From positions 3,113 to 67,112 of the forward strand of contig PBNE01000018.1 of assembly GCA_002722885.1 (NCBI GenBank): DNA of 64,000 bases, read 5' to 3'. The translations under genes were made by a program, and so were the position numbers. Positions within the stretch are counted from its first letter, which is position 1; the number at the start of each line of letters is the position of its first letter. The notes beneath the pieces are model-generated. The model was given only the letters and a program-made list of their open reading frames with translations, was not told the DNA's origin and ran no database searches. This document shows, one piece after another, positions 29,593-61,465 of this stretch. This DNA is from Rhodospirillaceae bacterium. Its GTDB lineage: Bacteria; Pseudomonadota; Alphaproteobacteria; SP197.

Positions 29593-29599
29593 GGTCGGG

Positions 29600-30223: not shown

Positions 30224-30321
30224 GGCACTCTCCCCGTTTCGGTCCCTGTGATGACCTCTCTGCGTGACCCTACCATCGCACATGATCCGTGTCAGACTGT
30301 CTGCAGATCATCTGAAGGCTG

Positions 30322-33242: not shown

Positions 33243-33246
33243 GCCA

Positions 33247-35211
33247 TCACACCTTGAACGCCACTTGCAGGCCTTCCAGTACGGCCTCTTCCACCGTTCT
33301 GGGGGCCAGAGCATCACCGATGATGTGGAGCTCGACATCGCCGCCGTAAAGCTCCTCCCACAGCGCCGCCTCGCGTTTATGAGGCGCGGCCAGCACGAGG
33401 GTCTCTACATCGTCACAGATGATCGGCACACCGCTGGTGACATGCTGCATAAAGACGGAGGTGTCGTCACAGCCATAGAGGCGGGGGTATGGAATGACCT
33501 CGACCCCAAACTTGTGGAGCTGCCCCATCCAGCCGTCGCGCACCATCATCGGCAGGTGTTCGCCGGGCATCGGCCCATTCACGCACAGCCTGACCGAACA
33601 GCCATCCCGTGCCAGCTTCTCGGCGACGCCTAGACCGATCCAATTAGCGTGCCAGTCATAAACCACAACCTTGCCACCCACATTGGCCGTACCCCTGGCC
33701 ACATCCCAGGCACCGACCACATGCGCCTGGTCCATGCCTTCCAGATCGGGGCGCTGTTCGGTCGCACCGGTCGCCATGATCAGGACATCGGGCGCCTCGG
33801 CCTCGATCAGAGCCCGCGTCGCTTCGGTGCTCTTGCGGATGTCGACGCCATGAATCTCACATTCACGGGTCAGGTTCGTCACGATGCCGCCGAACTCAGC
33901 GCGTCCAGGGAGGAGCTGGGCGATGGCCGCCTGGCCACCGAGCTGCGGTGAGCGTTCAAGCAAGATGACACGATGGCCTCGCTCGGCCGCCACAGCCGCC
34001 GCTTTCATGCCACCCGGTCCGCCGCCGACCACCAGCACATGACGTGCGGTCTCGGCCTTCGGTTTGGCGTAATAGTCGAGCTCACGGCCTGTTTCCGGAT
34101 GCTGGATGCAGGAAATCGGGAACCCTCGCAGACGATGACCGATGCAGGCCTGGTCGCAGGCGATGCAGGCACGAATGTCATCCACCCGTCCGTCACGCGC
34201 CTTGTTGACAAACTCGGGGTCGGCAATGTGGCCCCGAACGATGCCGACCATGTCGGCCTGGCCGCTGGCGACGATCTCTTCGGCGATCTGCGGCTGGTTG
34301 ATTCGACCTGCGATCATCACGGGCAGGCGCTTCACTGCGGATTTCAGTTCGCCCGACTTCTGGCCCGTGTAGCCGGCGTCGTACTGCATATGCGGGATAA
34401 TGTGCTGCCAGCCTGTGTAGGTCGCTGTCGAGCCCAGCACAATGTTGAGATAGTCGAGCACACCATCGGCATCGAGCGCGGCGCAGGCTTCGCGCGACTC
34501 CTCAATTGTAAGCCCCTCTTCGTCCATCTCGTCAGCCGAAATGCGCAGACCCAGGATCATGTCATCCCCGATCTTGGCCCTGATGTCGCCCGCGACCTCT
34601 CGCACGAAGCGCATGCGGTTTTCGAAGTTGCCGCCGTACTCGTCGGTCCTGCGATTGAGCCTGGGATTGATGAACTGGCTGGCGAGGTAACCCATCGACG
34701 AAATTATCTCGACCCCATCGAGTCCGGCCTCCGCCATCCGCGCCGCGCCATCACCATGGGCCGTAACGATCTCCCGGATCAGGTCGGCCGTCAGTGGCGT
34801 GGGTACGGTCTTGTACATCTCATCGGGCACCTCGGACGGCGCATAGGCCGTCATCTTGGTGCCGTCGATCGAGGCTGCCGCCACCCGGCCGGGATGGAAC
34901 ACCTGACCGATGATAGTCACACCGTAGTCCCGGCCCTTCTGTCCCAGCCGTTTTAGACCCGGCAAGCACTCGTCATTGGAAGCCCAGGCGCGGCCCTGTG
35001 GCATGTAGGTCGGATGCACGCAGTGGACTTCTGTCATGATCATGCCGACACCGCCTCGCATCCGCGCCTCGTGATAGGCGATCATCGCATCACCAACGCG
35101 GCCACCCTCACTCAACGCGGTATTGTGGCCGGGAACGAAGACCCTGTTCTTGATTTCCTTTCCGCGAATCTCCAGCGGCGAAAACAGGTGGGGAAACTGC
35201 GGGTGACTCAC
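33247..35211 (-). CDS. NADH:flavin oxidoreductase, StcD/DgcA-like, paralogue 2
   Basis: Same architecture (FPHLFSPLEIRGKEIKNR, CIACDQACIGH, VLVVGGGPGGMKAA). The GTG start at 35211 overlaps the upstream stop (GTGA). Confidence 0.88.
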   Translation of the reverse strand: MSHPQFPHLFSPLEIRGKEIKNRVFVPGHNTALSEGGRVGDAMIAYHEARMRGGVGMIMTEVHCVHPTYMPQGRAWASNDECLPGLKRLGQKGRDYGVTIIGQVFHPGRVAAASIDGTKMTAYAPSEVPDEMYKTVPTPLTADLIREIVTAHGDGAARMAEAGLDGVEIISSMGYLASQFINPRLNRRTDEYGGNFENRMRFVREVAGDIRAKIGDDMILGLRISADEMDEEGLTIEESREACAALDADGVLDYLNIVLGSTATYTGWQHIIPHMQYDAGYTGQKSGELKSAVKRLPVMIAGRINQPQIAEEIVASGQADMVGIVRGHIADPEFVNKARDGRVDDIRACIACDQACIGHRLRGFPISCIQHPETGRELDYYAKPKAETARHVLVVGGGPGGMKAAAVAAERGHRVILLERSPQLGGQAAIAQLLPGRAEFGGIVTNLTRECEIHGVDIRKSTEATRALIEAEAPDVLIMATGATEQRPDLEGMDQAHVVGAWDVARGTANVGGKVVVYDWHANWIGLGVAEKLARDGCSVRLCVNGPMPGEHLPMMVRDGWMGQLHKFGVEVIPYPRLYGCDDTSVFMQHVTSGVPIICDDVETLVLAAPHKREAALWEELYGGDVELHIIGDALAPRTVEEAVLEGLQVAFKV

Positions 35212-36347
35212 GTCATCGCCTCCACGATGAGATTGGCAAAATGCTGTGCCTGACGGTCCCAGATATCCGACAGGACGCCGCCGTCGAAGGCCGGGGAGTG
35301 GCGGCCGGTCTGCATCCACTCGATCGCACCGATGTCTTCCCGGTTCAACTCATCCCACATATCCGCAACACTCTGTGCCGCCTCGGCATAGGCGGGATCG
35401 GTTGTCGCCTCACCGATCAGGAAGATGTGCAGGTTCTCGACCGTGTGTTCGGGCCCAATGGGGAAAAGCTGGAAAACAGTCAGCTGGTCGGGCCAGAGCT
35501 GAAGACAACAGCTCGGAAACAGGAAGTACCCGCCCGCGAAGCGCGCTTGGTCTCCAGTGAGCCCCGGATACCAAGGCAGCCCCACGCCCCGTCCCTTCTG
35601 CGGCTCATCGATCAGGTATTCCGTGCGCAGCAGACCACCGTCGATCTGAAACGCCGACCGCTTGCTCAGCGGATAGAAGGCGTTAAGGCGAGGGTGAATT
35701 GTCGGGATGTGGTGGTTGTCGAAGTAGTTCTCGAAGACCAGTTTCCAGTTTGCTTTGAACTCCCACTCGACCGTCTTGTAGAGACGCAGCGCACCAAGGT
35801 CGTGTTTCGGAAGCCGGTTGGCCAGGGTCGCAATGAAATCCTCGAACGGCGCGGCCTGACCATCGAGGTTGAGAAAGATCATGCGGAACCAACGGCCCAG
35901 CCGTATAGGGACCAGACCGGGCCCGCTCCGCGACAGGTCGTGACGGTTCGCCCCCTCGAAGTGCGGTCGTGTTCGCAGCGCACCATCCAGACTATAGGCC
36001 CAGGCGTGATAGGGACAGGTCAGGACCGTCTGGTTGCTGCAGGGCTCTTCAACAACGATTGCCCCCCGATGACGGCAAACATTGTGGAAGGCCCTGATCT
36101 CACCATCGTGACCGTGAACAAGAACCACAGGCTTGCCTGCGATGGTTGTGGGAAACGCGTCGCCGGGTTCGGCAATCTGATCCAGACACCCGGCAAACAT
36201 CCATGTTCTTGCGAACAGGCGCTCGTTTTCGAGCTCCAGCCAGGCAGGGTCGGTGTAGCAGGTGTTGGGCAGACAGCTTCCACCGTCACCGGTAGGCCGT
36301 GACAGCCGGTCCCTGACTTCGGGTGTGATGAACGGCTCGATATTCAC
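35208..36347 (-). CDS. Rieske [2Fe-2S] non-haem-iron oxygenase alpha subunit, paralogue 1 (Stc2/GbcA-type betaine demethylase-like)
   Basis: Rieske motif CRHRGAIV-x-CPYHAWAY and mononuclear iron motif ENYFDNHHIPTIHP. The GTG start at 36347 overlaps the upstream stop (GTGA). Confidence 0.88.
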   Translation of the reverse strand: MNIEPFITPEVRDRLSRPTGDGGSCLPNTCYTDPAWLELENERLFARTWMFAGCLDQIAEPGDAFPTTIAGKPVVLVHGHDGEIRAFHNVCRHRGAIVVEEPCSNQTVLTCPYHAWAYSLDGALRTRPHFEGANRHDLSRSGPGLVPIRLGRWFRMIFLNLDGQAAPFEDFIATLANRLPKHDLGALRLYKTVEWEFKANWKLVFENYFDNHHIPTIHPRLNAFYPLSKRSAFQIDGGLLRTEYLIDEPQKGRGVGLPWYPGLTGDQARFAGGYFLFPSCCLQLWPDQLTVFQLFPIGPEHTVENLHIFLIGEATTDPAYAEAAQSVADMWDELNREDIGAIEWMQTGRHSPAFDGGVLSDIWDRQAQHFANLIVEAMT

Positions 36348-37483
36348 GCCATGGACTCGACAACAAGTTTCGCGAAATGCTGATGCGACGGATCCCAGTG
36401 TCCCGACAGAATCCCGCCGTCGAAAGCCGGTGAATAACGGCCTTGCTGCATCCACTCGATTGCGTTGATGTCTTCACGATTCAGCTCGTCCCACATGTCG
36501 TAGACACCTTGCCGTGCGCCTCCAAAGGCACCGTCCGTCGCGGCATCGCCGATCATAAAGACATGCAGGTTCTCGATCGTGTGATCCGGTGCAACCGGCA
36601 GGACCTGAAACACCGTGAGTTGATCAGGCCAGATTTGGTAACAGCAGCTTGGGAACAGGTGATAGCCGCCTTCCAACCGCTCAAGCTCCGGCGTCAGGCC
36701 GGGGTAATAGGGCAGCCCTACACCGCGCCCTCCCTCGGGTTCACCGAAGGCTACCTCGGTGTGGAACAGCTTGTCTTCGAATTCGAACCCCTGACGTGAG
36801 GTCATCAGTGCAAAGGCGTCGAGCCGGGGGTGGATGGCGAAGATGTGGTAGTTTTCGAAGTAGTTCTCGAAGACCAGCTTCCAGTTCGCTTTGACCTCCC
36901 ACACCAGAGTCTTCGCCAGCCGAAGCGCGGAGAGATCGTGGCCGGAAAGACGCCGTGCGAGCGGAGCGATATAGTCTTCGAACGGCGCAGCCTTGCCGTC
37001 GAGATTGAGAAAGATGGTGCGGTGGAACAGGCCCAGCCTGATCGGTACAAGCCCCGGCCCGTCCCTTGAGACGTCATGCACATCGGCACCGTTGAAATGC
37101 GGGTGCGTCCGCAGCTTGCCACCCAGTCCATAGGCCCAGGCGTGATAAGGGCAGGTCAGCACCGACTGGTTGCTGCAGGCCTGTTCGGCCACAATCGCAC
37201 TGCGGTGCCGGCAGACGTTGTGAAAGGCTCTGATCTCGCCATCACGTCCATGAACCAGAACCACAGGCTTGTTGCCGATGGTCGTGGGAAACACGTCGCC
37301 GGGTTGCGGCACATTGTCGATCGACCCCGCAAACATCCAAGTTTGCGCAAACAGGCACTCGTTCTCAAGTTCGAGCCAGCCGGAATCGGTGTAACAGGCA
37401 TTCAGCAGACACGCGGCGCCCTCGCCTGTCGGCCGCGACAATCGGTCCATGGTCTCTTTTGGGATCAAGAACGGGATGCCCAT
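36344..37483 (-). CDS. Rieske non-haem-iron oxygenase alpha subunit, paralogue 2
   Basis: CRHRSAIV..CPYHAWAY and ENYFENYHIFAIHP. Aligns with paralogue 1 from the N-terminus (GIPFLIPKETMDRLSRPTG vs NIEPFITPEVRDRLSRPTG). The ATG 37483 start overlaps the upstream gene by 19 nt. Confidence 0.85.
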   Translation of the reverse strand: MGIPFLIPKETMDRLSRPTGEGAACLLNACYTDSGWLELENECLFAQTWMFAGSIDNVPQPGDVFPTTIGNKPVVLVHGRDGEIRAFHNVCRHRSAIVAEQACSNQSVLTCPYHAWAYGLGGKLRTHPHFNGADVHDVSRDGPGLVPIRLGLFHRTIFLNLDGKAAPFEDYIAPLARRLSGHDLSALRLAKTLVWEVKANWKLVFENYFENYHIFAIHPRLDAFALMTSRQGFEFEDKLFHTEVAFGEPEGGRGVGLPYYPGLTPELERLEGGYHLFPSCCYQIWPDQLTVFQVLPVAPDHTIENLHVFMIGDAATDGAFGGARQGVYDMWDELNREDINAIEWMQQGRYSPAFDGGILSGHWDPSHQHFAKLVVESMA

Positions 37484-38673
37484 GGCCGCCTCGCCTCGTG
37501 GGCGATCATGAGGTCGGCGATCTGGCGGCCGAAATGCTGTGTCGCCGGATCCCAGAAAGGCGAGAACGCACCGCCGTCGAAGCCCGGCGAGACACGTCCG
37601 GCCTGCATGGATTCCAGCGGGTGGATATCCTCCTGATTCAGGGAATCCCATGTCTCGAACACCTTCGCACGCGTCTCATCGTACTGCCCCGCCATCGCCT
37701 CGCTCGGAAAGACGATGTGGATCATCTCCCTGGTCCTGCCCGGTGCTACAGGCTCCGCCACCAGAAAGGCGATGTGATCGGGCCAGATGTTGATGTTGCA
37801 GGTCGGCGTCACGGTAAACATGCGCCCTTCCCGGTGCAGCACGTCCGGCAGCCCCTCAAAGTAAGGCAGGCCTTGCCCCCTGCCCTCATGCGGTTTGGCG
37901 ATCACATGCCATGTCATTGTCATGTGCTGTGCGACCGGCGTCATCGGGTTGCTGGTTTCCATCGGAGCGAACTCACACAGCGCCGGGTGGATCGCGAACT
38001 TGTGGTAGACGTCGATGAAGTTCTCGTGGATGTGCTTCCAGTTGGCGTCGATGTCGTAGGTCAGGCACCCGCCGTGGGTGAAGTCGCGGCTTTCCCAGCC
38101 ATCCAGGTGCGCGTCGGCTGGCGCCATGTGTTCGGCCAGCGGCGCGGCGTCGCCCGAAATGTTCACGAACAGCACCCCGCGCCAGCTCTCGCAGCGCACG
38201 GGACGCAGGTTGCCGCGCTCATCGCCATCCTGCAGGACATCATGGTTGCCGCCACCCCGGAAATGCGGACGGGTCCGCAGCTTGCCGTCCAGGCCGTAGG
38301 CCCAGCCGTGATAGGGACAGGTGAAGGCCGCCAGCCTGCTGCAGGGTTCAGTCACGATCACCGCGCCGCGATGGCGACAGACATTGTGGAAGGCCCCGAT
38401 CGAACCGTCGTGATGCCGGACAAGGACGATCGGGCAGCCGGCCACGCGAACCGGCAGAGCATCGCCCGGCGCCAGAATCTGGCTTTCAAATCCGACCAGC
38501 ATCCACATTGGCCATATCAGGTGACGTCGTTCCAGTTCGAGCCAGTCGTTGCTGGTGTATGCGACATTGGGAAGAGCGCTGCCGTCGTCCACACCGGCAT
38601 GAAGCCGGATAAGGGCCTCCGCACCCAGAATGTCGGTCACACGGCTCGCAGCCGTCCGGTCGGCAGATGACAC
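37465..38673 (-). CDS. Rieske non-haem-iron oxygenase alpha subunit, paralogue 3 (more divergent)
   Basis: CRHRGAVIV..CPYHGWAYGLDG and ENFIDVYHKFAIHP. GTG start at 38673. Confidence 0.85.
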   Translation of the reverse strand: MSSADRTAASRVTDILGAEALIRLHAGVDDGSALPNVAYTSNDWLELERRHLIWPMWMLVGFESQILAPGDALPVRVAGCPIVLVRHHDGSIGAFHNVCRHRGAVIVTEPCSRLAAFTCPYHGWAYGLDGKLRTRPHFRGGGNHDVLQDGDERGNLRPVRCESWRGVLFVNISGDAAPLAEHMAPADAHLDGWESRDFTHGGCLTYDIDANWKHIHENFIDVYHKFAIHPALCEFAPMETSNPMTPVAQHMTMTWHVIAKPHEGRGQGLPYFEGLPDVLHREGRMFTVTPTCNINIWPDHIAFLVAEPVAPGRTREMIHIVFPSEAMAGQYDETRAKVFETWDSLNQEDIHPLESMQAGRVSPGFDGGAFSPFWDPATQHFGRQIADLMIAHEARRPWASRS

Positions 38674-38696
38674 GGCGATCTTACCTCTTACTTATC

Positions 38697-38724
38697 CGTG
38701 AAAACTCTTCCATGTAATTTCACG
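38697..38724. promoter_or_regulatory. Operator-like site A: CGTGAAA-N14-TTTCACG
   Basis: Perfect 7-bp inverted half-sites with a 14-nt spacer, 24-51 nt upstream of the Rieske paralogue 3 start. The same architecture recurs at 39888 and 45664. Confidence 0.5.
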
Positions 38725-38761
38725 CAACACAACACTCGAGAGCGGAGGAACATCCAGATCG

Positions 38762-39844
38762 TCAGGGATCGTTCGGCTGCACCACGACGTGACGTAGTCC
38801 GAGACCGCTTTCCTCCGCCTTGAGAAGCGCAGCCATGGTCTCCTCAAGCGGATAAACGATCGGTTCAACCGCCGAAAGATCGAGCTGCCCGGACGCGATC
38901 ATGGCGACCATGTGGTGGCCGGCCTCACGCGGGAACCAGATCGAGCCGATGATGTGAAGTTCCTGGAACAGGATGTCTTCATAGACAAGCGTCAGCGGGT
39001 CGGTGAACCCGACCCCCACCAGAGCGGCGCGCCCACCCTGGCCGAGACCGGCGAGCGCTGCCATCGTAGCCTCAGGCGCTGCCCCGTATCCGATCGCATC
39101 CAACATGACATCGGCGCCGCCACCGGCGGCATCACGGATGGCCGCGCCGTCGCTGTCGTCGCCGTTCAACACCACGGGCACGATCCGATTCGGCGCGAGC
39201 GCGGTCAGTTCATCGAGCAACGCCCGCCTGCGCCCGGTCGCCACAATGCGTGTGGCACCCATGGCAAGCGCCATCAAAACGCCCGACGCGCCGACCTGTC
39301 CTGTGGCGCCGCTGACAATCACGGTCTCACCCGGCTGCAGGTCCGCGTTCAGAAAGCCGCCGTAGGCTGTGCCGATCCAGCCCAGGCGCACCAGTTGCGC
39401 TGGCGTCGCTTTCTCTGTCGCCCGGCCCAGGCGCACCATGCACTCGGCGGGCTGGATCATCTGTTCCGCGAAGTTACCGTTCCGCCAGCGGGCCAGCGGC
39501 CGGTCCGATTGCTCCCCGAGCCCGAAGGATGCCAGCAAGCACCGGTCGTCGATGCCACCGGCAACCCGCGAACCATAAAAGTGGTCGCAATAGACGAGAT
39601 CGCCCGGGGCCACATGTGTGACACCGTCGGCCACGGCTCTCACGCGACCGATCGTATCCAGCCCCGGAACAAAGGGCTTCGGCGGAAACATCATGTCGGG
39701 CGGGTTTCTGATCCGCTCGGCCAGTCCACCAGTGCCGAAGGCCGCCACCACGTCCACAATTACGGAATCAGGCAACATCTCCGGCTCCGGAATGTCTTCC
39801 ATCACCAGTTCGCTGTTGTCTTCGTGCCAGACCGCCGCACGCAT
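38762..39844 (-). CDS. Medium-chain dehydrogenase/reductase (zinc-ADH/quinone oxidoreductase superfamily)
   Basis: MRAAVWHE..., GroES-like N-domain, Rossmann motif VIVSGATGQVG. First gene of the minus-strand operon. ATG 39844 was chosen over 39880. Confidence 0.85.
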   Translation of the reverse strand: MRAAVWHEDNSELVMEDIPEPEMLPDSVIVDVVAAFGTGGLAERIRNPPDMMFPPKPFVPGLDTIGRVRAVADGVTHVAPGDLVYCDHFYGSRVAGGIDDRCLLASFGLGEQSDRPLARWRNGNFAEQMIQPAECMVRLGRATEKATPAQLVRLGWIGTAYGGFLNADLQPGETVIVSGATGQVGASGVLMALAMGATRIVATGRRRALLDELTALAPNRIVPVVLNGDDSDGAAIRDAAGGGADVMLDAIGYGAAPEATMAALAGLGQGGRAALVGVGFTDPLTLVYEDILFQELHIIGSIWFPREAGHHMVAMIASGQLDLSAVEPIVYPLEETMAALLKAEESGLGLRHVVVQPNDP

Positions 39845-39887
39845 CGCTGCCTCCCCTTTTGCGAATGAAAACGCTACCACCCTTCTT

Positions 39888-39915
39888 CGTGAAATTGTTT
39901 TCCATCTTTTTCACG
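39888..39915. promoter_or_regulatory. Operator-like site B: CGTGAAA-N14-TTTCACG
   Basis: Identical half-sites and spacing to site A, in the divergent intergenic region between the MDR gene and the decayed Rieske gene. The spacer again contains TTCCAT. Confidence 0.5.
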
Positions 39916-39958
39916 AACTGAGTTAGAATGTCATCAACGCATTTGCCGGGGTCATGCC

Positions 39959-41083
39959 ATGTCCGCAAAAACCGCCGAAGCACTGGGCTTCGACATCGCT
40001 GAAATCGAGGATAGGATCGCCAACAACTGGAGCCTTCCGACCCGCTGTTACTGGGATCAGGACATCTTCGATTTCGATCTCGAAGCGATCTTTGCCAGGC
40101 GCTGGCAGTTCTTCTGTCCCGTACACAAGGTGATGAAGCCGGGTGACGTGGCCGTCCGGCAGGTAGGCCGGTATCCCGTTGTAGTCACTTGCGACCGCAA
40201 CGGCAGGCTGCAAGGCTTTCTCAACATCTGTCGCCACCGAGGCTACACAGTGGCCGAACGGGATCAGTAGAAGTGCCTCAGGCTCGTGCGCCGCTATCAC
40301 GGCTGGTCCTACAACCTCGACGGAGCGCTGGCACACGCCCCTGACGCCGACGGCGAAGCCGGGTTCTGCAAGGACGATCTGAGTCTCAGGCGGGTTGCGG
40401 TCGACCAGTGGGGAGCAGCGATCTTCATCCATCCGGATCCCCAGGCCGCCTGCATGCGCGAGACGTATCCTACTTTGTTCGAAACCGCCGACGAGATCGC
40501 CTTTGATCCCGATCCGGCAGAGTGGATTCCGTACAAGGAGGTCGTCTACGACATCCCGACCAACTGGAAGCTTTGGTACGATAACGGGACGGTGTGCTAC
40601 CACTGCCCCACGATCCACGAGAGCTCATTTGCCGACAGCTATGACTCCGGCGAAGGCAGCTACAGTTCGGAGATGGGGCCGGGCTATCTGATGAGCCACT
40701 ATCTCAACAAGCCCGGCGACCGGCGCAACGCCCCCATCGAGACCGAGCAGTATGCCTTCCAGGTCTTCCCCGGCTTCGTCTGCATCGGAGAGGGCGACAT
40801 CCTGCATATGACCGGCATGGTGCCGATCTCAGCCGGACGAACCCACCATGTCACACACTGGCTGGCGCGTCCTGGAACCGATCCGGACTACTCCAGAACG
40901 TTATCGGATGTCTGGGACCAGACCTACCGTGAAGACAACGCGGCCACATCCGACCAGTACAACAACCTTGCCGTGGGCCATCAGGACTGGAATCGTTATG
41001 TGGCAGGCCGGGAGTTCGGTGCGGTTCACATGAGCCGCACCATCTGGGACCACTACAAGGCCGCACTTTCGCCTGTCCACTGA
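39959..41083 (+). pseudogene. Rieske oxygenase alpha subunit (GbcA/CntA-like CYHC subtype) disrupted by an in-frame TAG and lacking a Rieske Cys ligand
   Basis: ORFs 39959..40270 and 40286..41083 are in the same frame, separated by TAG at 40268. The sequence reads CRHRGYTVAERDQ*KCLRLVRRYHGWSY, whereas the paralogues have C-P-Y-H at that position (Cys to Arg). Confidence 0.75.
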
Positions 41084-41134
41084 ACAACAGCACCCGCCAA
41101 CGGGCACACCACCAGGACACAAAGGGACAAACAC

Positions 41135-41524
41135 ATGACCGATCGACGCAAGGAACTCGAAGAGCTCACACATCAGTTCGTTGACTGCTTCAACCGTCAG
41201 GACATTGACGGGATCGCGGCCTTCTTTGCCGAAGACGGAGTCTATGAGGATTCCAACGGCGGCAGCCACACGGGGCCCGCCGCTATCAAGGAAGCGTTTG
41301 TGCCGCTGGTCTGCGGCAGTCGCGGCAAGATCAGCTTTGATGACGAGGACTTTTTCGCTGAGCCCGAGTCCGACAAAGTCATGGCGAGCTGGACGCTCAA
41401 CATGGAGATCGAAGGCAAGCCGATGAGGCTGCGCGGGCTGGATCTACTTCATTTCCGCGGTGACAAGCTCGTGCGCAAGATGGCGTATTGCAAGGCCGCA
41501 GCGCCCCAGCTCACCGAGGGCTGA
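41135..41524 (+). CDS. SnoaL-like/NTF2-fold protein
   Basis: 129 aa. FVDCFNRQDIDGIAAFFAEDGVYEDSNG is the typical SnoaL_2 N-terminal pattern. Confidence 0.8.
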   Translation: MTDRRKELEELTHQFVDCFNRQDIDGIAAFFAEDGVYEDSNGGSHTGPAAIKEAFVPLVCGSRGKISFDDEDFFAEPESDKVMASWTLNMEIEGKPMRLRGLDLLHFRGDKLVRKMAYCKAAAPQLTEG

Positions 41525-41689
41525 AGACACCAACCGGGCCTGTCTAAGAATCGGTTTCTTCGGTTGCATAAGGACTCGCAAATCTAAAAAGTACGGGGCA
41601 TGTTTGTCATCTGACTGCACAAGAATGCGGCTTCAACGGCTGCGGAAACTACGCATCCTCGAGAGATGTTTGAGACAAGGGAGAACACC

Positions 41690-42622
41690 ATGGGAGTTCT
41701 GAGTAGAAAACTGTTGGGTGCTGTTGCAGGCACCGTTATGGCGATGAGTGTTGCTGGAACAGCAACGGCCGACGTACCGGAAAGTGACCGGGCGATCATT
41801 ATTCCGCTCCATAACTGGACCGGAGCCACCATCGGCGGTGCGATCGCCGGCCAGATTCTTCAGGACATGGGCTACAACGTCGAGTTTGTGGCCGTGGGTG
41901 CGCTGGCTGCAGCACAGGCCATCGCAGACGGTGATGTGACCTTCACACCTGAACTCTGGGACAACAACCTCGGCGAGCTCTATCCGACCCTGATGGCAGA
42001 AGGCAAGATTGTTGACTTGGGTGAGGTCGGCATTGACGCACGCGAGGGCTGGCTCTATCCCATTCATGTCGAAGAACTCTGCCCCGGCCTGCCCGACTGG
42101 GAGGCCTTCTTGGGCTGTTCCGAGATTTTCGCAACGCCTGAGACCTTCCCCAACGGCCGTTACCTCGACTACCCCGCCGAGTGGCTGAGCCGTGGTGGCG
42201 ATATGGTGCGCAACGAAGGCCTGCCGTTCGACGTCGTACCCGCCGGATCGGAAGGCGCTCTGGTTGCCGAGCTGAACTCCTCTGTCGACCGTCAGTCTGC
42301 CCTGATCATGATGTTCTGGGCGCCGCACTGGGTCCTGTTCAAGCATGACTACAACTGGGTCGAGATGCCGACGGACCTGGTCGAGAAGTACAGCATGCAG
42401 AAGCCGCGCGTGTTCAAGGCCGGTTGGCCCGGTATGTTCGATGAATGGCCGGTGGCTTCGAACTTCATCCAGAGCTTCCAGATCGACAACGCGGCGCAGG
42501 AAGTCCTGATGGATGAGATCGACAACAAGGGTGTGCCCCTGATGGAGGCCACCCGTGCGTGGATCGACGCCAATCCCGACAAGTGGCAGCCCTTCGTGGA
42601 CGAAGCCATGGCGGGCAGCTGA
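41690..42622 (+). CDS. Glycine betaine/proline betaine-type ABC substrate-binding protein (OpuAC/ProX family)
   Basis: Signal peptide, then PLHNWTGATIGG..., TFTPELWDNN and GWLYP aromatic-box-like motifs typical of OpuAC. ATG 41690 is preceded by GGGAGA. Confidence 0.85.
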   Translation: MGVLSRKLLGAVAGTVMAMSVAGTATADVPESDRAIIIPLHNWTGATIGGAIAGQILQDMGYNVEFVAVGALAAAQAIADGDVTFTPELWDNNLGELYPTLMAEGKIVDLGEVGIDAREGWLYPIHVEELCPGLPDWEAFLGCSEIFATPETFPNGRYLDYPAEWLSRGGDMVRNEGLPFDVVPAGSEGALVAELNSSVDRQSALIMMFWAPHWVLFKHDYNWVEMPTDLVEKYSMQKPRVFKAGWPGMFDEWPVASNFIQSFQIDNAAQEVLMDEIDNKGVPLMEATRAWIDANPDKWQPFVDEAMAGS

Positions 42623-42649
42623 ACGAACCCGTCTGACTGAAACGGCAAG

Positions 42650-42686
42650 GGGCCGGGTGGCAACACCCGGCCCTTTCCATTTTGTG
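42650..42686 (+). terminator. Rho-independent terminator after the binding-protein gene
   Basis: GGGCCGGGTG-GCAA-CACCCGGCCC followed by TTTCCATTTTGTG. Confidence 0.8.
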
Positions 42687-42805
42687 TCGGCCCGAACTTG
42701 CCGATCATGGCCACAACAGGCTCGGGGCAAAGCAACTCAGGCTGCTTGAACCCGCCGATACAACCCGTCACGATGGCCGCAGCGAACCAACTTCGAGGAT
42801 CCGAC

Positions 42806-43564
42806 ATGGCCGCCACCGCACAACCCGTCAGCCAGGAGTTCAACGAACGCCGCGTCCGCGTGGAACTTGCGGCGATGTACCGTATCTCGCACTTCTACGG
42901 CTGGACCGATGTGATCGACACACATCTGACCGCACGTGTACCGGGCACCGATGATCAGTACTTCATCAACCCCTATGGCCTGATGTTCGATGAGATCACG
43001 GCCTCGACCCTTCTGAAGGTTGATTTCGAGGGCAATGTGCTGGAAGGCGACTATCCCACCAACGAGGCCGGGCATCTCATTCACACCGCCGTTTTGAAAG
43101 CGCGCCCCGATCTCAACGTCGTGCTCCATACGCACGCCCGTGCCAGCAGCGCCGTCTCGGCCATGGAATGCGGTCTGCTTCCGATCAGCCAGCAGGCCAA
43201 CGAAGTCATCAAGCTGGTGCGTTATCACGACTACCACAATGTCGTCGCCAGCCCGGAAGCCGAGTGTGAAGCGCTCGCCCGTGACATGGGCGACGATGCC
43301 AAGCTCATGATCATGCGCAACCACGGCCTGCTCTCCGGCGGCCGCACGATGTCCGAAGCCTTCTGGCTGATGATGCGCCTGGAAACCGCCTGCAAGATTC
43401 AGGTCGATGTCCTAGGCTCCGGCCAGCCCTATGTAACGCCTTCGCAGGACGCCATCGACGACCTCGCCGCCTACGCCGTGAACGCCGAAGCCGACGACTA
43501 CGACCGCTACTGGCAGGCTGCCTTGCGCCTGGCCCACCGCAAGTATCCGGGCTTCGACGCCTAG
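42806..43564 (+). CDS. Class II aldolase/adducin-family protein
   Basis: VRVELAAMYRISHFYGW.D...THLTARVPG, the metal-ligand block VVLHTHA, and RNHGLLSGG. ATG 42806 is preceded by GAGGA. Confidence 0.85.
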   Translation: MAATAQPVSQEFNERRVRVELAAMYRISHFYGWTDVIDTHLTARVPGTDDQYFINPYGLMFDEITASTLLKVDFEGNVLEGDYPTNEAGHLIHTAVLKARPDLNVVLHTHARASSAVSAMECGLLPISQQANEVIKLVRYHDYHNVVASPEAECEALARDMGDDAKLMIMRNHGLLSGGRTMSEAFWLMMRLETACKIQVDVLGSGQPYVTPSQDAIDDLAAYAVNAEADDYDRYWQAALRLAHRKYPGFDA

Positions 43565-43580
43565 ATCAGGTTCTCCCGCC

Positions 43581-45017
43581 CTAGGTCACATCCGGCATCG
43601 GCGTGTAGGCGTGCTCACCATCATTGAGCGCGGCATCGCGCCCCCCCAGGTCTGCAACCTTGTCCGCCTGCTCGGCCATGCATTGCGCGTTGACCGCTTC
43701 GTAATCGACAATCGAACGCAGCTTGGTATCGCAGGCAGAGAGGGTCTCTGCATGGGCAGGGTCGCCCATCAGATCATGCGCTTCGATCGGATCAGCGACC
43801 ATGTCGAAGAGCTGGGGTGGATAGCCCGGATAGGCAATGTACTTCCAGTTTCGCCAGCGCAGCATGAACATGCCTGTGATCGCTCCAGTCTCATGAAACT
43901 CGCTGATCACGCCCCGGTCCCTGTGATCGCCACTGATTAGGTCCTGCAGGGCCAACCCTGACAGCTCGCTGTCATCATCTCCAAGCGCCAGATCGTGCGC
44001 CTTCAGGATCGTCTGGTGCAGATCGACGTGGGACGTAGCGGAATCGCAACGCTCACCCTCAGGAATGCCGGGGCCCGCCACGATCAGCGGGATGGCCGAG
44101 GATTCCTCGTACATGTTCATCTTGGCCCACATGCCGTGGTTGCCCAGCATCTCGCCATGATCGCTGGTGTAGATGATCAGTGTGTTGTCAGCCTGGCCCG
44201 AGTCCTCAAGTGCGGCCAGGATCTTGCCGATGTTGTCGTCCAGGAATGAGACGTAGCCGTAGTACGACAGCCTCGCCTCACGAATATGGTCGTCGTCGCG
44301 GAAGTGCTTGTCGTAGTCCCAGACCGTCTGTGTGACATCGAGCACAGGATGATCCGGGCGTTCATCTGCCCCCCGCAGACGGGGCGTATCAATCGCATCG
44401 CGGTCATAGAGGTCATAGAACGCGTCAGGCGCTACGATCGGATGATGGGGCGCCACGAAGGAGGCGAACAGCGTCCAGGGTTGCTCCTGCTTCGGGGCCT
44501 CATCCCGCAACCACGCCGAGGCGAGTTCACACACCTTGCGGTCGTAGCTGGTGTAACGGGATTCACCCCGGCCGATATCGTTCGCGAAGTCCTCATTGCT
44601 TGGGTAGCCGAAGTCCCGGTCACGGACCATGGTCGAAGTGAACCCGATGCCGTCCAGGATGTGGACGGGAATCACCTCATGGGAGAACCCATTGTTGTCT
44701 TCGTTCGAACGGAAGTGGAGCTTGCCGATCGAAAAGCACTCACGTCCTTCCGCAAGCAGACGATGACCCCAGCCCTCGATATGCCCGGTGTAGGGCTCCG
44801 CACTCGACCATGTGCCCAGCTGATGCACCCAGCGGCCGGTCTGCATCGAAGCCCGTGTCGACACGCAGATCGGCCCGGCGCAATAGGCCGTGTCGAAGAT
44901 CGTGCCGCGCGCCGCGAGGCGATCGAGGTTCGGCGTCTTGACCAGCGGGTCACCGTAACATCCGGTGATGTCTCGCTGATGCTGATCCGAGCAGATGAAA
45001 AGAACGTTCTGCGCCAC
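43581..45017 (-). CDS. Sulfatase-family (alkaline-phosphatase superfamily) hydrolase
   Basis: NVLFICSDQH, PICVSTRASMQTG (sulfatase signature region) and IIYTSDHGEMLG. GTG start at 45017. Confidence 0.88.
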   Translation of the reverse strand: MAQNVLFICSDQHQRDITGCYGDPLVKTPNLDRLAARGTIFDTAYCAGPICVSTRASMQTGRWVHQLGTWSSAEPYTGHIEGWGHRLLAEGRECFSIGKLHFRSNEDNNGFSHEVIPVHILDGIGFTSTMVRDRDFGYPSNEDFANDIGRGESRYTSYDRKVCELASAWLRDEAPKQEQPWTLFASFVAPHHPIVAPDAFYDLYDRDAIDTPRLRGADERPDHPVLDVTQTVWDYDKHFRDDDHIREARLSYYGYVSFLDDNIGKILAALEDSGQADNTLIIYTSDHGEMLGNHGMWAKMNMYEESSAIPLIVAGPGIPEGERCDSATSHVDLHQTILKAHDLALGDDDSELSGLALQDLISGDHRDRGVISEFHETGAITGMFMLRWRNWKYIAYPGYPPQLFDMVADPIEAHDLMGDPAHAETLSACDTKLRSIVDYEAVNAQCMAEQADKVADLGGRDAALNDGEHAYTPMPDVT

Positions 45018-45103
45018 GACGAAGCCTCCTCAGTTCAGACCGATGGACGGTCAGGACACTGTTCCATCCCAGGGGTCCCGATGGCAACGCCCGCGCCTGG
45101 AGC

Positions 45104-45331
45104 CTACCGGCGTTCGAGTTTGGCGCGCCATCCCGGATGGTCGACGACCGCCGTGTTCACGAGGTTGCCCGGCACCTCACCGCGTTTGACGGCCAGCACC
45201 GCCCCAATGGCCTCTTGCGATGCGTCACTGTAACTCCTATCGGTCATACACATGGAATGGGGCGTCACCACGACGTTGGGCATGCTGAGCAACGGATTGC
45301 CGTCCTCAATCGGTTCGGGCCTCAAACACAC
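45104..45331 (-). pseudogene. C-terminal fragment of a D-isomer-specific 2-hydroxyacid dehydrogenase
   Basis: NPLLSMPNVVVTPHSM..T......A..A..AVKRGE.P.NLVN matches the last about 65 residues of the family. No N-terminal or NAD-binding domain is present. Confidence 0.6.
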
Positions 45332-45635
45332 CGCTGTGAATCACGAAGCCGGTCTTGGGCGCCAGTCCCTCACCGTCGATCACCTCAATCGTGTTGCCCT
45401 CCACATCCACCTTCACCAGCAGAGAAGCGGTCATCTCGTCCCAGCGCACACTCATGGGGTTAATCAGGCAGTGGTTGGGGTTGTCCGGGCAGCGCGCGGT
45501 GATGTGGTTCCACACCAGCTGATACCATCCGAACCGGTCGGCGAGCCGGAAAGCAGCCGCCAGGTCGACCCTGAGATCGTGTTCAGTCTGCCACATTCGG
45601 CCCTGATTCATCGCGACAACGGACGACATCATCAA
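45306..45635 (-). pseudogene. N-terminal fragment of a class II aldolase/adducin-family gene (paralogue of 42806..43564)
   Basis: LRVDLAAAFRLADRFGWYQLVWNHITARCPD...MTASLLVKVDVEGN aligns with residues about 15-105 of the intact paralogue. It stops before the metal-binding HTH block. Confidence 0.6.
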
Positions 45636-45663
45636 ACTTCTCGTCTTTGAACAGCATCCGAAT

Positions 45664-45691
45664 AATGAAACATTGCTAACGAATTTTCACG
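45664..45691. promoter_or_regulatory. Operator-like site C: AATGAAA-N14-TTTCACG (plus an adjacent CGTGAAC at 45698-45704)
   Basis: Same 14-nt spacing and a perfect right half-site. The left half has 2 mismatches. It lies 72-99 nt upstream of the TMADH-like gene. TTCACG-N6-CGTGAA forms a second, tighter palindrome. Confidence 0.45.
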
Positions 45692-45762
45692 CCAATTCGT
45701 GAACGGGGTCTGGCGCACCGAAGCACAACGCGTCAGGCTCTGCACGCTCGACGGAGGGCACC

Positions 45763-47832
45763 ATGGCACGCGATCCGCGCTACGACATCCTCTTCGAACC
45801 GGTGAAGATCGGTCCGGTCACGGCCAGGAACCGGTTCTATCAGGTTCCCCATTGCAACGGCATGGGCCGGAAGCATCCCACGGCCATGGCCGTGATGCGG
45901 GGTGTGAAAGCCGAAGGCGGCTGGGCTGTCGTCTGCACCGAACAGTGCGACATTCATGTTACTTCGGACACTGAGCGTGAAATCCGCCTGTGGGACGACC
46001 GCGACATTCCCTACCTCGCGCGCGTGGCCGACCAGGTGCACAAGCACGGCGGCCTCGCGGGTCTCGAACTCACCCACATGGGTTATCACGCCGGCAACTA
46101 CATTGGCCGCGAGGTCGCCATGGCGCCCTCGGGACGCCCGGCCTACGGCAACATGCCCTTCCATGCCCGTGCGATGGACAAGACCGACATTGCGGACTAC
46201 CGCCGCTGGCATCGGGCCGCCGCCCTGCGCGGCAAGGAGGCCGGCTTCGACATCATGTATGTCTACGCCGGACACAGTCTCAGTCTGCCGATGCACTTTC
46301 TGTCGCAGCGCCACAACACCCGTACTGACGAATACGGCGGCTCAATGGAGAACCGCGTGCGCCTGCTGCGCGAGGTGATCGAGGACACCAAGAACGCTGT
46401 GGGCGACACCTGCGGCATCGCCGTGCGCCTAGCGGTTAACGAACTGCTGGGTCCCGGCGGCATCACTCCCGACAAAGAAGGCCGCGCCGTCATCGAGATG
46501 CTGGGTGAGCTGCCTGATCTCTGGGACGTTAACGTGGCGGATTGGGAAAACGACAGCGAAACGTCGCGCTTCACCGAAGAGGGCTACCAAGAAGAACACA
46601 CCAGCTTCGTAAAGTCGCTGACCTCCAAGCCTGTCGTTGGTGTCGGTCGCTACACCAGCCCCGACAAGATGGTCTCGCTTATCAAGAACGGCGTGCTCGA
46701 CATGATCGGCGCGGCGCGGCCCTCGATCGCCGATCCCTTTCTGCCGAAGAAGATCGAGGAAGGCCGAATCGAGGACATTCGCGAGTGCATCGGCTGCAAC
46801 ATTTGCATCGGCACCGCGAACCAGAACACCTACATGCGCTGCACCCAGAACCCGACCCAGAGCGAGGAATGGCGGCGTGACTGGCATCCCGAGGTCATAC
46901 CGCCCAAGAACACAGACGACCGGATACTGATCGTGGGTTCCGGACCAGCCGGCCTGGAAGCGGCGCGAGCCCTTGGTCAGCGCGGCTACGACGTCATGCT
47001 GGCAGAAGCCCGCCACGAGTTGGGCGGACGTGCGGCCTGGGAATCGGGCCTGCCGGGCCTTTCGGCCTGGGGCCGTGTGAAGGACTGGCGCATCGGCCAG
47101 CTTCACAAGTTGCCCAATGTCGAGATCTTCATGGATTCGGAGATGACCGCCGAGACCGTGCGCGAAACCGGTGCCAGCCTTGTGGCCCTGGCAACCGGCG
47201 CCACATGGCGGCGCGACGGGTCGGGCCGCTATCACGACCATGCGATGCAGAGCGCCCTGAAGTTCGCCCAGAAAATCTTCACACCCGAGGACATCGTGGC
47301 CGGCGCCGATGTGGAAGGCCCCGTCGTCGTCTTCGATGATGACCACTACTACATGGGCGGTGTCATCGCCGAAGCCCTGGCCCGCGCCGGGCGCACGGTC
47401 AGCATCGTCACGCCCTCCGCTTCGGTCTCGTCATGGACCGCCTTCACGCTCGAGATCGGACGCATTCAGGCGCGCATGCGGGAGCTCGGCATTGCGCTCC
47501 ACCTCGACCACACCCTGACAGATATCGACATGGGCGAAATCGAGATTACCGACATCTACTCCGGCCGTACAGAGTGGATCAACTGCAGCAGTGTGGTGAT
47601 GGTCACCGGCCAGAATCCGAACGATGCGCTCTACCACGAGCTCATGGCCGACAAAGCCGCGAACGAAGCCGCCGGCATCCGCCGCATCTCGCGCATTGGC
47701 GACTGCTACGGCCCCGGACCCATCGCCGCCGCCGTCTTCGGCGGCCACCGTTATGCCCGTGAACTGGGTGACCATGTCGGTGACGGCGTACCCTTCAAAC
47801 GTGAAATCGTCGAACTCGTGGCCGAGATCTGA
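45763..47832 (+). CDS. Trimethylamine/dimethylamine dehydrogenase-family flavin/Fe-S protein
   Basis: The N-terminus ARDPRYDILFEPVKIGPVTARNRFYQVPHCNGMG closely parallels the remembered Methylophilus TMADH N-terminus, including the Cys used for 6-S-cysteinyl-FMN. CIGCNIC...C Fe-S motif and an ADP-binding fold ILIVGSGPAGLEAA. Confidence 0.9.
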   Translation: MARDPRYDILFEPVKIGPVTARNRFYQVPHCNGMGRKHPTAMAVMRGVKAEGGWAVVCTEQCDIHVTSDTEREIRLWDDRDIPYLARVADQVHKHGGLAGLELTHMGYHAGNYIGREVAMAPSGRPAYGNMPFHARAMDKTDIADYRRWHRAAALRGKEAGFDIMYVYAGHSLSLPMHFLSQRHNTRTDEYGGSMENRVRLLREVIEDTKNAVGDTCGIAVRLAVNELLGPGGITPDKEGRAVIEMLGELPDLWDVNVADWENDSETSRFTEEGYQEEHTSFVKSLTSKPVVGVGRYTSPDKMVSLIKNGVLDMIGAARPSIADPFLPKKIEEGRIEDIRECIGCNICIGTANQNTYMRCTQNPTQSEEWRRDWHPEVIPPKNTDDRILIVGSGPAGLEAARALGQRGYDVMLAEARHELGGRAAWESGLPGLSAWGRVKDWRIGQLHKLPNVEIFMDSEMTAETVRETGASLVALATGATWRRDGSGRYHDHAMQSALKFAQKIFTPEDIVAGADVEGPVVVFDDDHYYMGGVIAEALARAGRTVSIVTPSASVSSWTAFTLEIGRIQARMRELGIALHLDHTLTDIDMGEIEITDIYSGRTEWINCSSVVMVTGQNPNDALYHELMADKAANEAAGIRRISRIGDCYGPGPIAAAVFGGHRYARELGDHVGDGVPFKREIVELVAEI

Positions 47833-47844
47833 GCCGCCCCTCGC

Positions 47845-49452
47845 ATGTCTCAGTCCGGTTCCAGTCTACCACCGCTGCCGGTCTCGATCCCGCACATGCT
47901 GTCCGAACGGGCACGCGCAACGCCGGATCGTGAAGCGTTTGTCTTTTTCGACCAGAACAAGACAATTACTTACCGGGGACTTGAGGAGGAAGTCAGGCGG
48001 GTTGCCGCCGGCCTCTCTTCCATGGGTGTCCGCAAGGGGACCCATGTCGCGCTGATGCTGCCCAACATCGCTGAATTCCCGTTCACCTGGCTGGCACTAG
48101 CCTGGTTGGGTGCCATTTCGGTCCAGCTCAACCCGAAGTTCACCGGCCGGGAGCTCGACTACGTTCTGAACGACGCCGATGTCGACTACCTAGTGATCGA
48201 CGAAACCTGCCTGTCGTCGTTCGATGCGATGGAACAGCGCAGCGCACGCCTGCCCGACGCCAACATCATCGTTTGCAGCACGGAACGCACCGACAGTCCC
48301 TATGCCCTCTGGGCTTCATTGACCGACTCCGCCCCACTGCCCGAGGCCCCGCGCGACGACGTCACCCGGCACGATGTCGTCGCCATTCTCTACACCTCAG
48401 GCACCACAGGATTTCCCAAGGGGTGCATGCTCGATCATCAGTACTGGCTGCAGATCGCCACCTGCGCGCTGTTGGCCCAGGGCGATCACACGCCGCGCCG
48501 GTCTCTGATTCAGGAGCCGATGTTCTACATCCAAGGCAACGCCATCTTCGTTGCCTCATTGCTCGCCAACGCCACGGTCTACTGCCCCGCGAGGCCCAGC
48601 ATCGCGAAGTTCCTCGGTTGGGTGCAGGACTACGCCATCGACTATTGCGCGATCCCTGTCCCGCTGCTCCATGTCATGGAAGACTACCCTGCGGAGATGG
48701 GCCAGAGCCTTTGCTTTGTCCATGCCTGGTACTATCCTGGCGGTGCCCTGGAGCGCCTCGAAGAGCGCTTCAGACTTGTCGGCAGAGATTCCTATGCGAT
48801 GACCGAAAATGGGCTCTGTCTCTACGTGCCCGTTGACCGCCCCGACCTCGCGGGCAGGGGCTCGGTCGGTGTCCCGGCACCCGGACGCGAGATTCGTATC
48901 GTCGATGAGGATGGCAACGATGTGGCCGACGGAGAGACCGGTGAAGTCTGGACGGCCGGCCCCGGACATTTCCACGGCTACTACCGCAAGACCACCGCCA
49001 ACCGTGAGAGCTTCCAGGGACGCTGGTTCCGCACCGGCGACCTGATGCGGCGTGACGCAGACGGCGGCCACTATCTGGTCGGACGCATCAAAGACATGAT
49101 CAAACGCTCAGGAGAGAACATCTCAGCAGCAGAAGTCGAAGGCTGCCTTGCCCGCCTGCCCGGGATTGTCATGACCGCTGTGATCTCCGTGCCTGATCCG
49201 GAGCGCGGTGAAGAGGTCAAGGCCTACCTTTGTCTCGCACCGGACCTGACGCCGGAGGACATCACGCCGCAGATGGTCTTCGACCACTGCGCAGACGGCC
49301 TTGCCGCCTTCAAAATTCCTCGCTACCTCGCCTACGTTGAGAGCCTTCCCATGACCGCCAGCGACGACAAGGTTTCGAAGGCCGAGCTGACCGTTGGCAT
49401 CGATGATCTCACGTCCGGTTCGTTTGACCGAATCGACGGCGTCTGGCGCTGA
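47845..49452 (+). CDS. AMP-binding acyl-CoA synthetase/ligase
   Basis: AMP motif ILYTSGTTGFPKG, YAMTE, TGD and a C-terminal K (IKRSGENI). Confidence 0.9.
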   Translation: MSQSGSSLPPLPVSIPHMLSERARATPDREAFVFFDQNKTITYRGLEEEVRRVAAGLSSMGVRKGTHVALMLPNIAEFPFTWLALAWLGAISVQLNPKFTGRELDYVLNDADVDYLVIDETCLSSFDAMEQRSARLPDANIIVCSTERTDSPYALWASLTDSAPLPEAPRDDVTRHDVVAILYTSGTTGFPKGCMLDHQYWLQIATCALLAQGDHTPRRSLIQEPMFYIQGNAIFVASLLANATVYCPARPSIAKFLGWVQDYAIDYCAIPVPLLHVMEDYPAEMGQSLCFVHAWYYPGGALERLEERFRLVGRDSYAMTENGLCLYVPVDRPDLAGRGSVGVPAPGREIRIVDEDGNDVADGETGEVWTAGPGHFHGYYRKTTANRESFQGRWFRTGDLMRRDADGGHYLVGRIKDMIKRSGENISAAEVEGCLARLPGIVMTAVISVPDPERGEEVKAYLCLAPDLTPEDITPQMVFDHCADGLAAFKIPRYLAYVESLPMTASDDKVSKAELTVGIDDLTSGSFDRIDGVWR

Positions 49453-49467
49453 GGGCGGACAGAGACA

Positions 49468-50712: not shown

Positions 50713-51064
50713 GTGCGTCACCTGTTGTTGCGGCACTCTTGTTGACCTCAACCTGCCTGTAATCCTTCCAGCCGCGACAAGATTGTGAAGCCAATCAGAT
50801 TGTAAACAATTGCATCCTTTATTGATCTGCCGGAGCCGAGCCGATGTCTTCCCTGCCAAACAACACCGATGTTCTGGTCATCGAGGCATCCAGGATGGCC
50901 GTGCAGCCCCAGTCTCCGCTCTCGCCGAGATGTTCCAGCCAACCCTCAGCGGCGTCGCGCCAATTGTCGTTCACATCATTCCTCCCCACGGGCCGCATTG
51001 TGCTACAGGAGTCTGGAAGACACGAACACCTGATAACCTTTGGGAACCCGTGAGGCACGAGGCC

Positions 51065-61439: not shown

Positions 61440-61465
61440 TTCATGAATATCAAAATGAGTGTGAC

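Follow-up and report, generated by a model that had tools for sequence, protein, structure and literature searches.

The stretch analysed here, 64,000 nt of contig PBNE01000018.1 from a Rhodospirillaceae bacterium (hereafter the window), carries a cluster of genes for Rieske oxygenases, TMADH-like flavoproteins and an MDR-type dehydrogenase, within which three palindromes of common design are situated between genes. Two of them, site A (38697-38724; CGTGAAAACTCTTCCATGTAATTTCACG) and site B (39888-39915; CGTGAAATTGTTTTCCATCTTTTTCACG), are perfect copies of CGTGAAA-N14-TTTCACG. The third, site C (45664-45691; AATGAAACATTGCTAACGAATTTTCACG), reads AATGAAA-N14-TTTCACG and has the core TGAAA-N14-TTTCA intact; 6 nt past it stands an extra half-site, CGTGAAC (45698-45704), giving the arrangement TTCACG-N6-CGTGAA. 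Site A is situated in the 88 bp that separate the MDR gene from Rieske-3 and ends 24 nt before the GTG start codon of the latter. Site B is centred in a divergent gap of 114 bp: the ATG of the MDR gene on one side and that of a decayed Rieske gene on the other are each 43 nt away. Site C separates a truncated aldolase gene on the minus strand (about 30 nt off) from a TMADH-like operon on the plus strand, the ATG of which follows 71 nt later. The three sites had been pointed out in an earlier, sequence-only reading of the window, and the positions, sequences and gene contexts reported there, including the additional half-site next to C, were all found to be correct.

The gene map of the cluster was compiled from Pfam and NCBIfam scans and from the gene calls of a near-identical metagenomic contig (L001, 99.97% identity). 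Three target units can be delineated around the sites. Unit 1 (31278-39844, minus strand) comprises the MDR-type dehydrogenase gene (38762-39844), three paralogous genes for Rieske oxygenase alpha subunits (Rieske-3, 37465-38673; Rieske-2, 36344-37483; Rieske-1, 35208-36347) and two genes for TMADH-like FMN/FAD flavoproteins (33247-35319 and 31278-33338). Unit 2 (39959-43564, plus strand), divergent from site B, consists of the decayed Rieske gene followed by genes for a SnoaL-like protein, an OpuAC-type binding protein and a class II aldolase. Unit 3 (45763-49920, plus strand) encodes a TMADH-like flavoprotein (45763-47832), an AMP-dependent ligase and a 150-aa protein without a family match. 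A further minus-strand unit contains methyltransferase and acyl-CoA dehydrogenase (ACAD) genes (27793-30283) together with the gene of an XRE-cupin protein (27078-27719), the candidate regulator considered below; the same gene order is seen in the related loci L086 and L114-L117. Unit 1 and this regulator unit are divided by a plus-strand homocysteine S-methyltransferase gene (30322-31281; PF02574, 1.5e-44), an arrangement also found in L114, and because this gene intervenes, a single minus-strand operon running from 39844 down to 27078 was rejected.

The motif scan of the source DNA covered the 64-kb window. When the 28-mer was searched for with up to three mismatches, 7 matches were recovered against 2.27 expected, a number that was attained in 0 of 100 shuffles. 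The four matches other than A, B and C have three mismatches each, and the two of them that were mapped (28272-28299 and 39617-39644) fall in coding DNA. CGTGAAA and TTTCACG occur only five times each on the plus strand of the window, so that two perfect and equally spaced copies cannot be attributed to chance. The zero-mismatch core TGAAA-N14-TTTCA is present exactly three times, at A, B and C, each time in a short intergenic region, compared with 0.00027 core sites expected from shuffling of the three site-bearing intergenic regions. The three palindromes are therefore real, non-random and operator-like, and they define a small set of probably co-regulated units. Since the copies have only their half-sites in common, a mobile repeat could be excluded.

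The part of the motif that is conserved is smaller than had been suggested in the sequence-only reading. The 7-bp half-site described there is indeed identical in A and B, but the conserved unit is confined to TGAAA/TTTCA and the spacing (R is weakly preferred in front of it and A behind it), and the spacers and flanks diverge. Likewise, the hexamer TTCCAT is present in the spacers of both A and B, but its position is shifted by one base (spacer positions 5-10 in A and 6-11 in B) and it is not generally conserved. TTCCAT was accordingly discarded as a general spacer element; CATGGAA is common only to site A and to its counterpart in the related cluster L119. Among the strain variants L001-L004, site C differs solely at spacer base 45680 (C/T) and both half-sites are unchanged.

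Related clusters were reached via homologues of the MDR protein and of the XRE-cupin regulator. In L087, whose MDR protein is 70% identical to that of the window, three zero-mismatch core sites were found: in the MDR/Rieske gap (11121-11148), in the divergent Rieske/MDR region (9829-9856) and between TMADH-like and sulfatase genes (6049-6076), the last of these being placed similarly to site C. L086 (56% identity for the MDR protein, 63% for the regulator) possesses two zero-mismatch sites, one in the MDR/Rieske gap (11118-11145) and one in the gap between IclR and OpuAC genes (6344-6371), together with a site before the MDR gene (9927-9954) that has 1 mismatch. L119 (61% identity for the regulator) has two sites in a divergent Rieske/Rieske region, 3608-3635 as the counterpart of A and 3469-3496 as that of B, and another between IclR and OpuAC genes (679-706). 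The counterpart of site A in L119 is positioned directly before the equivalent Rieske gene, and there is no MDR gene at that place. The view of the palindrome as a regulon-defining operator-like element thus survives phylogenetic footprinting in all three clusters. The proposal that site A marks an internal regulated promoter is plausible, given that the site is kept in L086, L087 and L119 and that a TTGT box is located just upstream. This box (38729-38732, minus strand) is invariant in four orthologous regions (alignment columns T44 T45 G46 T47), 4-7 nt upstream of site A, and is a possible -35 element of such a promoter.

Of the loci reached with the MDR protein, L086 and L087 alone proved to be orthologous clusters. 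Loci containing MDR homologues without the cluster (L085, L088-L091 and L104-L108, representing unrelated or decayed contexts) served as negative controls and contained no core site. A search of species-representative genomes with Rieske-3, for which the query patterns were too generic, gave 32% identity at best among the matches listed, with the motif in 0 of the 80 listed loci. This distance, the ENA and Tara-type metagenomic origin of the contigs and the assignment of the closest named regulator homologue to an alphaproteobacterial MAG suggest that the window derives from an uncultured marine alphaproteobacterium. Megablast of the cluster against plasmids produced no match, and a search of metagenome contigs with the regulator returned one distant and uninformative locus. 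Several observations on the arrangement of sites in the related clusters may be added. The OpuAC gene of the window has no site in front of it and no IclR gene; L086 and L119 have a divergent IclR gene and a zero-mismatch site at this position. In L086, the half-sites are also found without a spacer and in opposite orientation (TTTCACGTGAAA, 19046-19062), just upstream of the XRE-cupin gene, and in L119 an overlapping GTGAAATGAAATTTCAT is present at the site (3604-3635). Such arrangements may be a hint of cooperative binding or of several binding registers.

In order to inspect loci chosen independently of the motif, plasmid loci were selected with tblastn, the sole criterion being resemblance to the regulator protein (34-45% identity), and the DNA beside the regulator gene was then examined. 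The distant homologue loci obtained in this way are on plasmids of Rhizobium, Agrobacterium, Sinorhizobium, Paracoccus, Cupriavidus, Comamonadaceae and Microbulbifer, that is, in three proteobacterial classes, and their regulator promoter regions bear [G/A]TGAAA-N13/14-TTTCA[C/T]. Altogether, the palindrome is present beside homologous regulator genes in at least 12 other loci. Two zero-mismatch N14 sites (CGTGAAAAAAACGTATTGATTTTTCACA and CTTGAAAATCTAGCGTTCGTTTTTCATG) are found in R. leguminosarum, two N15 variants on pSymA of S. meliloti, one zero-mismatch and one degenerate site apiece in A. tumefaciens and S. fredii NGR234, and two sites in A. vitis. In Cupriavidus one N13 site heads the regulator-containing operon, and in the Comamonadaceae plasmid the regulator gene is flanked by two sites. 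P. denitrificans PD1222 has a perfect AATGAAAAT...ATTTTCATT in the regulator promoter region, two perfect copies lie 14 and 47 nt upstream of the regulator start codon in Microbulbifer, and versions with 1 mismatch are present in Phaeobacter and Pseudosulfitobacter.

The association of the motif with this type of regulator is also evident quantitatively. Zero-mismatch N13/14 cores number 22 in 314 kb of XRE-cupin loci, whereas control loci with a comparable G+C content, 1.52 Mb in all, contain 5; this corresponds to an enrichment of about 21-fold (Poisson p about 6e-22). Furthermore, when a weight matrix built from non-window sites only was applied to the window, the three top-scoring positions were A (26.9 bits), B (28.1 bits) and C (28.5 bits), whereas 20 shuffled windows gave 14.2 bits at most. 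The fourth-best match (61418-61445; AACGAATTATATTTGTTATCATTTCATG) reaches only 18.6 bits; it lies in an AT-rich segment, just upstream of the open reading frames (ORFs) at 61430 and 61703, and, though above the shuffled maximum, is probably an effect of composition. The matrix scan revealed no further site in the other intergenic regions of the window, in agreement with the sequence-only reading, in which the motif was not seen in those of them that were read.

The candidate cognate regulator at 27078-27719 is a protein of 213 aa translated from the GTG at 27719 on the minus strand. Its N-terminal part is an XRE-type HTH domain (PF01381 HTH_3, E = 2.2e-13), with PDB sequence matches to the HTH domains of ClgR, SinR and DdrO, and its C-terminal part is a cupin sensor domain (PF07883 Cupin_2, E = 7.8e-16) that is conserved across the clade. 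It is the sole DNA-binding protein among the scanned ORFs of the window. Orthologues with 61-76% identity are always encoded behind the same Rieske, TMADH-like, methyltransferase and ACAD genes, and the cluster with its regulator is conserved in the window, L086, L114-L117 and L119. The regulon would be local: the regulator gene is within the target cluster, and all three sites detected in the 64 kb are inside that cluster. In L114-L116, a zero-mismatch site precedes the methyltransferase-ACAD-regulator unit itself. The supposition of the sequence-only reading that the regulator is not encoded next to these operons is therefore probably wrong, given that the cluster encodes the XRE-cupin protein and that homologues of the latter carry the motif beside their own genes. 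The candidates named at that time do not fare better, as no GntR, IclR or AraC-GATase gene is found among the scanned window ORFs. Across the motif loci, IclR genes are present in two related loci, a GlxA-type gene in one and LysR or DeoR genes in others; the only regulator gene common to all of them is that of the XRE-cupin protein.

An alignment of the regulators revealed a conserved recognition-helix region, S-x-G-[YFW]-L-S-[QE]-x-E-R, which in the window protein reads SIGYLSQVER. Homologues with the helix G[YFW]LS[QE].ER have TGAAA half-sites. The Roseovarius homologue has the helix SHLSTIER and the palindrome CGAAA-N13-TTTCG, and the Shinella homologue has GYISQIER and GTAAAA-N13-TTTTAC. 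Although the cases are few, this co-variation of helix and half-site points to the XRE-cupin protein as the factor that would bind the palindromes.

Taken together, A, B and C are best regarded as predicted operators of the PuuR-like XRE-cupin (HTH_3 plus Cupin_2) factor encoded at 27078-27719, because the sites are non-random, conserved at equivalent positions and associated with the regulator clade; we put the probability of this reading at roughly 0.8. An XRE-cupin dimer would place one HTH domain on TGAAA and the other on TTTCA. The centres of the half-sites are about 19-21 bp apart, or roughly two helical turns, so that both domains would contact the same face of the DNA. The sites in the window end 24-71 nt before start codons (the distances are 6-47 nt in L119 and Microbulbifer) and hence probably overlap core promoters or transcription starts, where the bound protein would block RNA polymerase. 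At site B it would repress the MDR/Rieske/TMADH-like unit along with the divergent partner, at site A the internal promoter before the three Rieske genes, and at site C the second TMADH-like/ligase unit. A small ligand accommodated in the cupin domain, probably a substrate or an intermediate of the methylated-amine pathway, would then free the repressor. Repression would thus take place by occlusion of three promoter regions, among them the internal one at site A. We infer the overlap with promoters from the distances to start codons and from the TTGT box; if this box is a -35 element, the operator would cover both the spacer and the -10 element.

A number of observations weigh against this assignment. 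A scan for sigma-70 consensus promoters near A, B and C detected nothing, and the separation of the half-sites is wider than in the characterised XRE-cupin operators. The regulator gene is 11 kb from the nearest operator, and the methyltransferase-ACAD-XRE unit of the window has no recognisable site, so that this unit may be constitutively expressed, although its relatives appear to be autoregulated. Moreover, three homologue loci (L110, L113 and L117) had no clear site within the fetched range, and in L086 and L119 a second regulator may be involved, since an IclR gene adjoins one of the sites.

The latter observation bears on the question of whether the palindromes are operators of some other regulator encoded elsewhere, such as an IclR, GntR or GbdR/CdhR-type AraC-GATase protein, with the XRE-cupin gene as a mere passenger. 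In L086 and L119 a zero-mismatch site is enclosed by divergently oriented IclR and OpuAC genes, the R. leguminosarum locus (L094) has a GlxA-type gene 4 kb from the sites, and the regulator unit of the window is without a site of its own. However, there is no IclR, GntR or AraC gene among the window ORFs that were scanned or listed, and neither of the two gene types seen elsewhere travels with the motif: IclR is restricted to L086 and L119 and absent from the motif-bearing plasmid loci, and a GlxA-type gene is found in L094 of R. leguminosarum only. In the motif loci of Agrobacterium, Phaeobacter, Cupriavidus, Comamonadaceae, Paracoccus and Microbulbifer, the site always has the XRE-cupin gene immediately next to it, and neither an IclR nor a GlxA gene is in the vicinity. 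Changes in the half-sites, moreover, follow changes in the XRE recognition helix. We therefore consider a different regulator quite improbable. Binding by the XRE-cupin protein as an activator or dual regulator, and not as a repressor, appears unlikely as well. The XRE-cupin protein NceR of Neisseria has been cited as an activator (PMC12724383), and the sites in Rhizobiaceae are about 80-210 nt upstream of the regulator start codon, both of which would be compatible with activation. On the other hand, the short distances between site and start codon in the window, L119 and Microbulbifer leave little room for a downstream promoter, and the characterised members of the class are nearly all repressors (PMC7901475).

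It might also be asked whether the palindromes act at the level of RNA, as hairpins that stabilise, process or attenuate transcripts. Each site can form a stem of 7-9 bp, site A is intercistronic, and site B on the plus strand folds with -10.4 kcal/mol (z = -3.6). Nevertheless, the stems are weak and have 14-nt loops, A and C fold no better than shuffled sequences (z = -1.0 and +0.6, respectively), no T-run follows A, B or C, and none of them resembles a terminator. Sites B and C are located in divergent regions, upstream of both genes, and no Rfam family is matched. In addition, the half-sites are found next to regulator genes in three classes of proteobacteria, where their spacing is constant and the sequence between them varies freely. 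A role in RNA is thus hardly credible, and we return to the palindromes as operators of the XRE-cupin protein in what follows.

XRE-cupin factors are known as local repressors of adjoining metabolic genes that bind as dimers to promoter-proximal palindromes (PMC7901475). Palindromes of this class are 15-25 bp long (PMC7901475, PMC12724383); examples include the PsdR operator TTAAG-N5-CTTAA (PMC10965056) and a 20-bp palindrome over the -10 element that is recognised by DbuR of P. putida (PMC12724383). For the palindromes of the XRE family, spacers of about 12-14 bp have been described as common in a survey (PMC12565409). The window protein shares with the Pseudomonas factors PsdR, PauR and ErfA (Trouillon et al. 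2021, PMC7901475) and with DbuR the HTH_3 plus cupin build, a gene beside the metabolic targets, a small local regulon and a palindromic operator near the starts of the targets; by analogy, the expected mode of action would be repression lifted by a small ligand. It differs from them in that there is no close sequence relationship and in the half-sites, which here are TGAAA/TTTCA. The operators also span 24-28 bp, compared with 15 bp for PsdR and 20 bp for DbuR, and the regulator gene is 11 kb from the nearest operator, whereas in the Pseudomonas/DbuR type it is divergent from its target. Furthermore, one half-site is used across the whole clade with differing targets, unlike in the Pseudomonas paralogues, each of which has a motif of its own. 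The target sets of the clade include Rieske/TMADH-like genes in the window, DMGDH-like/ETF/purU/folD genes in Rhizobiaceae and roseobacters, and gabT/GGT genes in Comamonadaceae. With its two domains, a palindromic operator by adjoining metabolic genes and a local regulon, the system belongs to the known XRE-cupin class.

The best-scoring named family for the window protein is PuuR (NF007408), the repressor of putrescine utilisation in E. coli, which has the same architecture and likewise controls an amine catabolic cluster. The targets, however, are different (Rieske oxygenases and TMADH-like flavoproteins), and orthology to PuuR was rejected, the score being 68.3 bits against the NF007408 cutoff of 211. 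A paper on a 'PuuR' of R. phaseoli was set aside, as it concerns a different orthologue of 182 aa. GbdR, CdhR and SouR are AraC-GATase activators of betaine, carnitine and sarcosine catabolism. The system described here is similar to theirs in the type of pathway, namely oxidative demethylation of quaternary or methylated amines, but the protein belongs to another family, no gene of the GbdR/CdhR/SouR kind is found among the scanned window ORFs, and in other loci the motif is not linked to genes of this kind. A literature search, which was not exhaustive and had regulon databases outside it, found no description of the motif, of the clade or of such a regulator together with betaine/dimethylglycine genes.

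A wider generalisation may be offered as a tentative one, to which we give somewhat less than even odds: PuuR-like XRE-cupin regulators of Alpha-, Beta- and Gammaproteobacteria would form a widespread clade that keeps RTGAAA-N13/14-TTTCAY, with half-sites about two turns apart, across different amine and N-demethylation gene sets, and the member encoded in the present window would govern a Rieske/TMADH-like pathway for a methylated osmolyte. If so, cross-regulation would be seen wherever one genome has several paralogues with this operator in common; a single plasmid record contains as many as 5 places homologous to the regulator. Some loci have paired sites at distances of about 33 and 64 bp, corresponding to about 3 and 6 turns, respectively. 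The wide spacing of the half-sites and the paired sites could reflect cooperative or tetrameric binding, unlike that of the characterised members.

The understanding of XRE-cupin regulators as a class is unchanged by these findings. What they provide is a link between an uncharacterised clade of regulators and a concrete DNA motif, which is usable for predicting regulons in many Alpha-, Beta- and Gammaproteobacteria. They also delimit a gene set that is likely to be co-induced, namely three Rieske oxygenases, three TMADH-like flavoproteins, the MDR dehydrogenase, the OpuAC-type protein, the aldolase and the ligase, and thereby narrow the search for the methylated-amine substrate. Given its ligand, the regulator with its operator could serve as a biosensor.

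As to the pathway itself, the family matches of its genes indicate demethylation of a methylated amine or osmolyte. The Rieske proteins score 118 bits against the GbcA cutoff of 670, and the flavoproteins remain below every curated cutoff, for which reason the pathway was assigned only to this general type. The homocysteine S-methyltransferase gene suggests methyl transfer to homocysteine, of the betaine-homocysteine type, beside oxidative demethylation. Elsewhere in the window, two glutamine-synthetase-like genes, a GATase/GXGXG/glutamate-synthase-like trio and a gene for a large NAD(P)-flavoprotein are present at 9856-12710 and 19776-25155. All of these genes together resemble the N-methylglutamate route of methylamine use, and with the cluster described above the window looks like a methylated-amine catabolic island.

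Gene decay is apparent next to two of the sites. The decayed Rieske gene beside site B (39959-41083, plus strand) contains an in-frame TAG at 40268-40270 and has apparently lost the second Cys-x-x-His of the Rieske motif. The same split was called in L001, the counterpart in L087 is split elsewhere, and that in L086 is intact. The truncated class II aldolase copy (45306-45635, minus strand), a remnant that borders site C on one side, covers profile positions 2-83 of 183; its full-length paralogue in unit 2 (42806-43564, plus strand) is 2 kb away, and a choline-sulfatase-like gene on the minus strand is located between the two. Downstream of the TMADH-like/ligase genes follow the 150-aa ORF (49468-49920, plus strand) and a long ORF (50810-52741, plus strand; 558 aa in L001); neither matches a Pfam or NCBIfam family, and both are kept in related contigs. 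Finally, two segments of the window, 17400-19700 and 61000-64000, have a G+C content of about 49-51%, compared with about 62% elsewhere. The only recognisable gene in the former is a PAS-domain ORF (19016-19642), and the latter contains a 622-aa ORF (61703-63571) with no Pfam match; both segments may represent acquired DNA.

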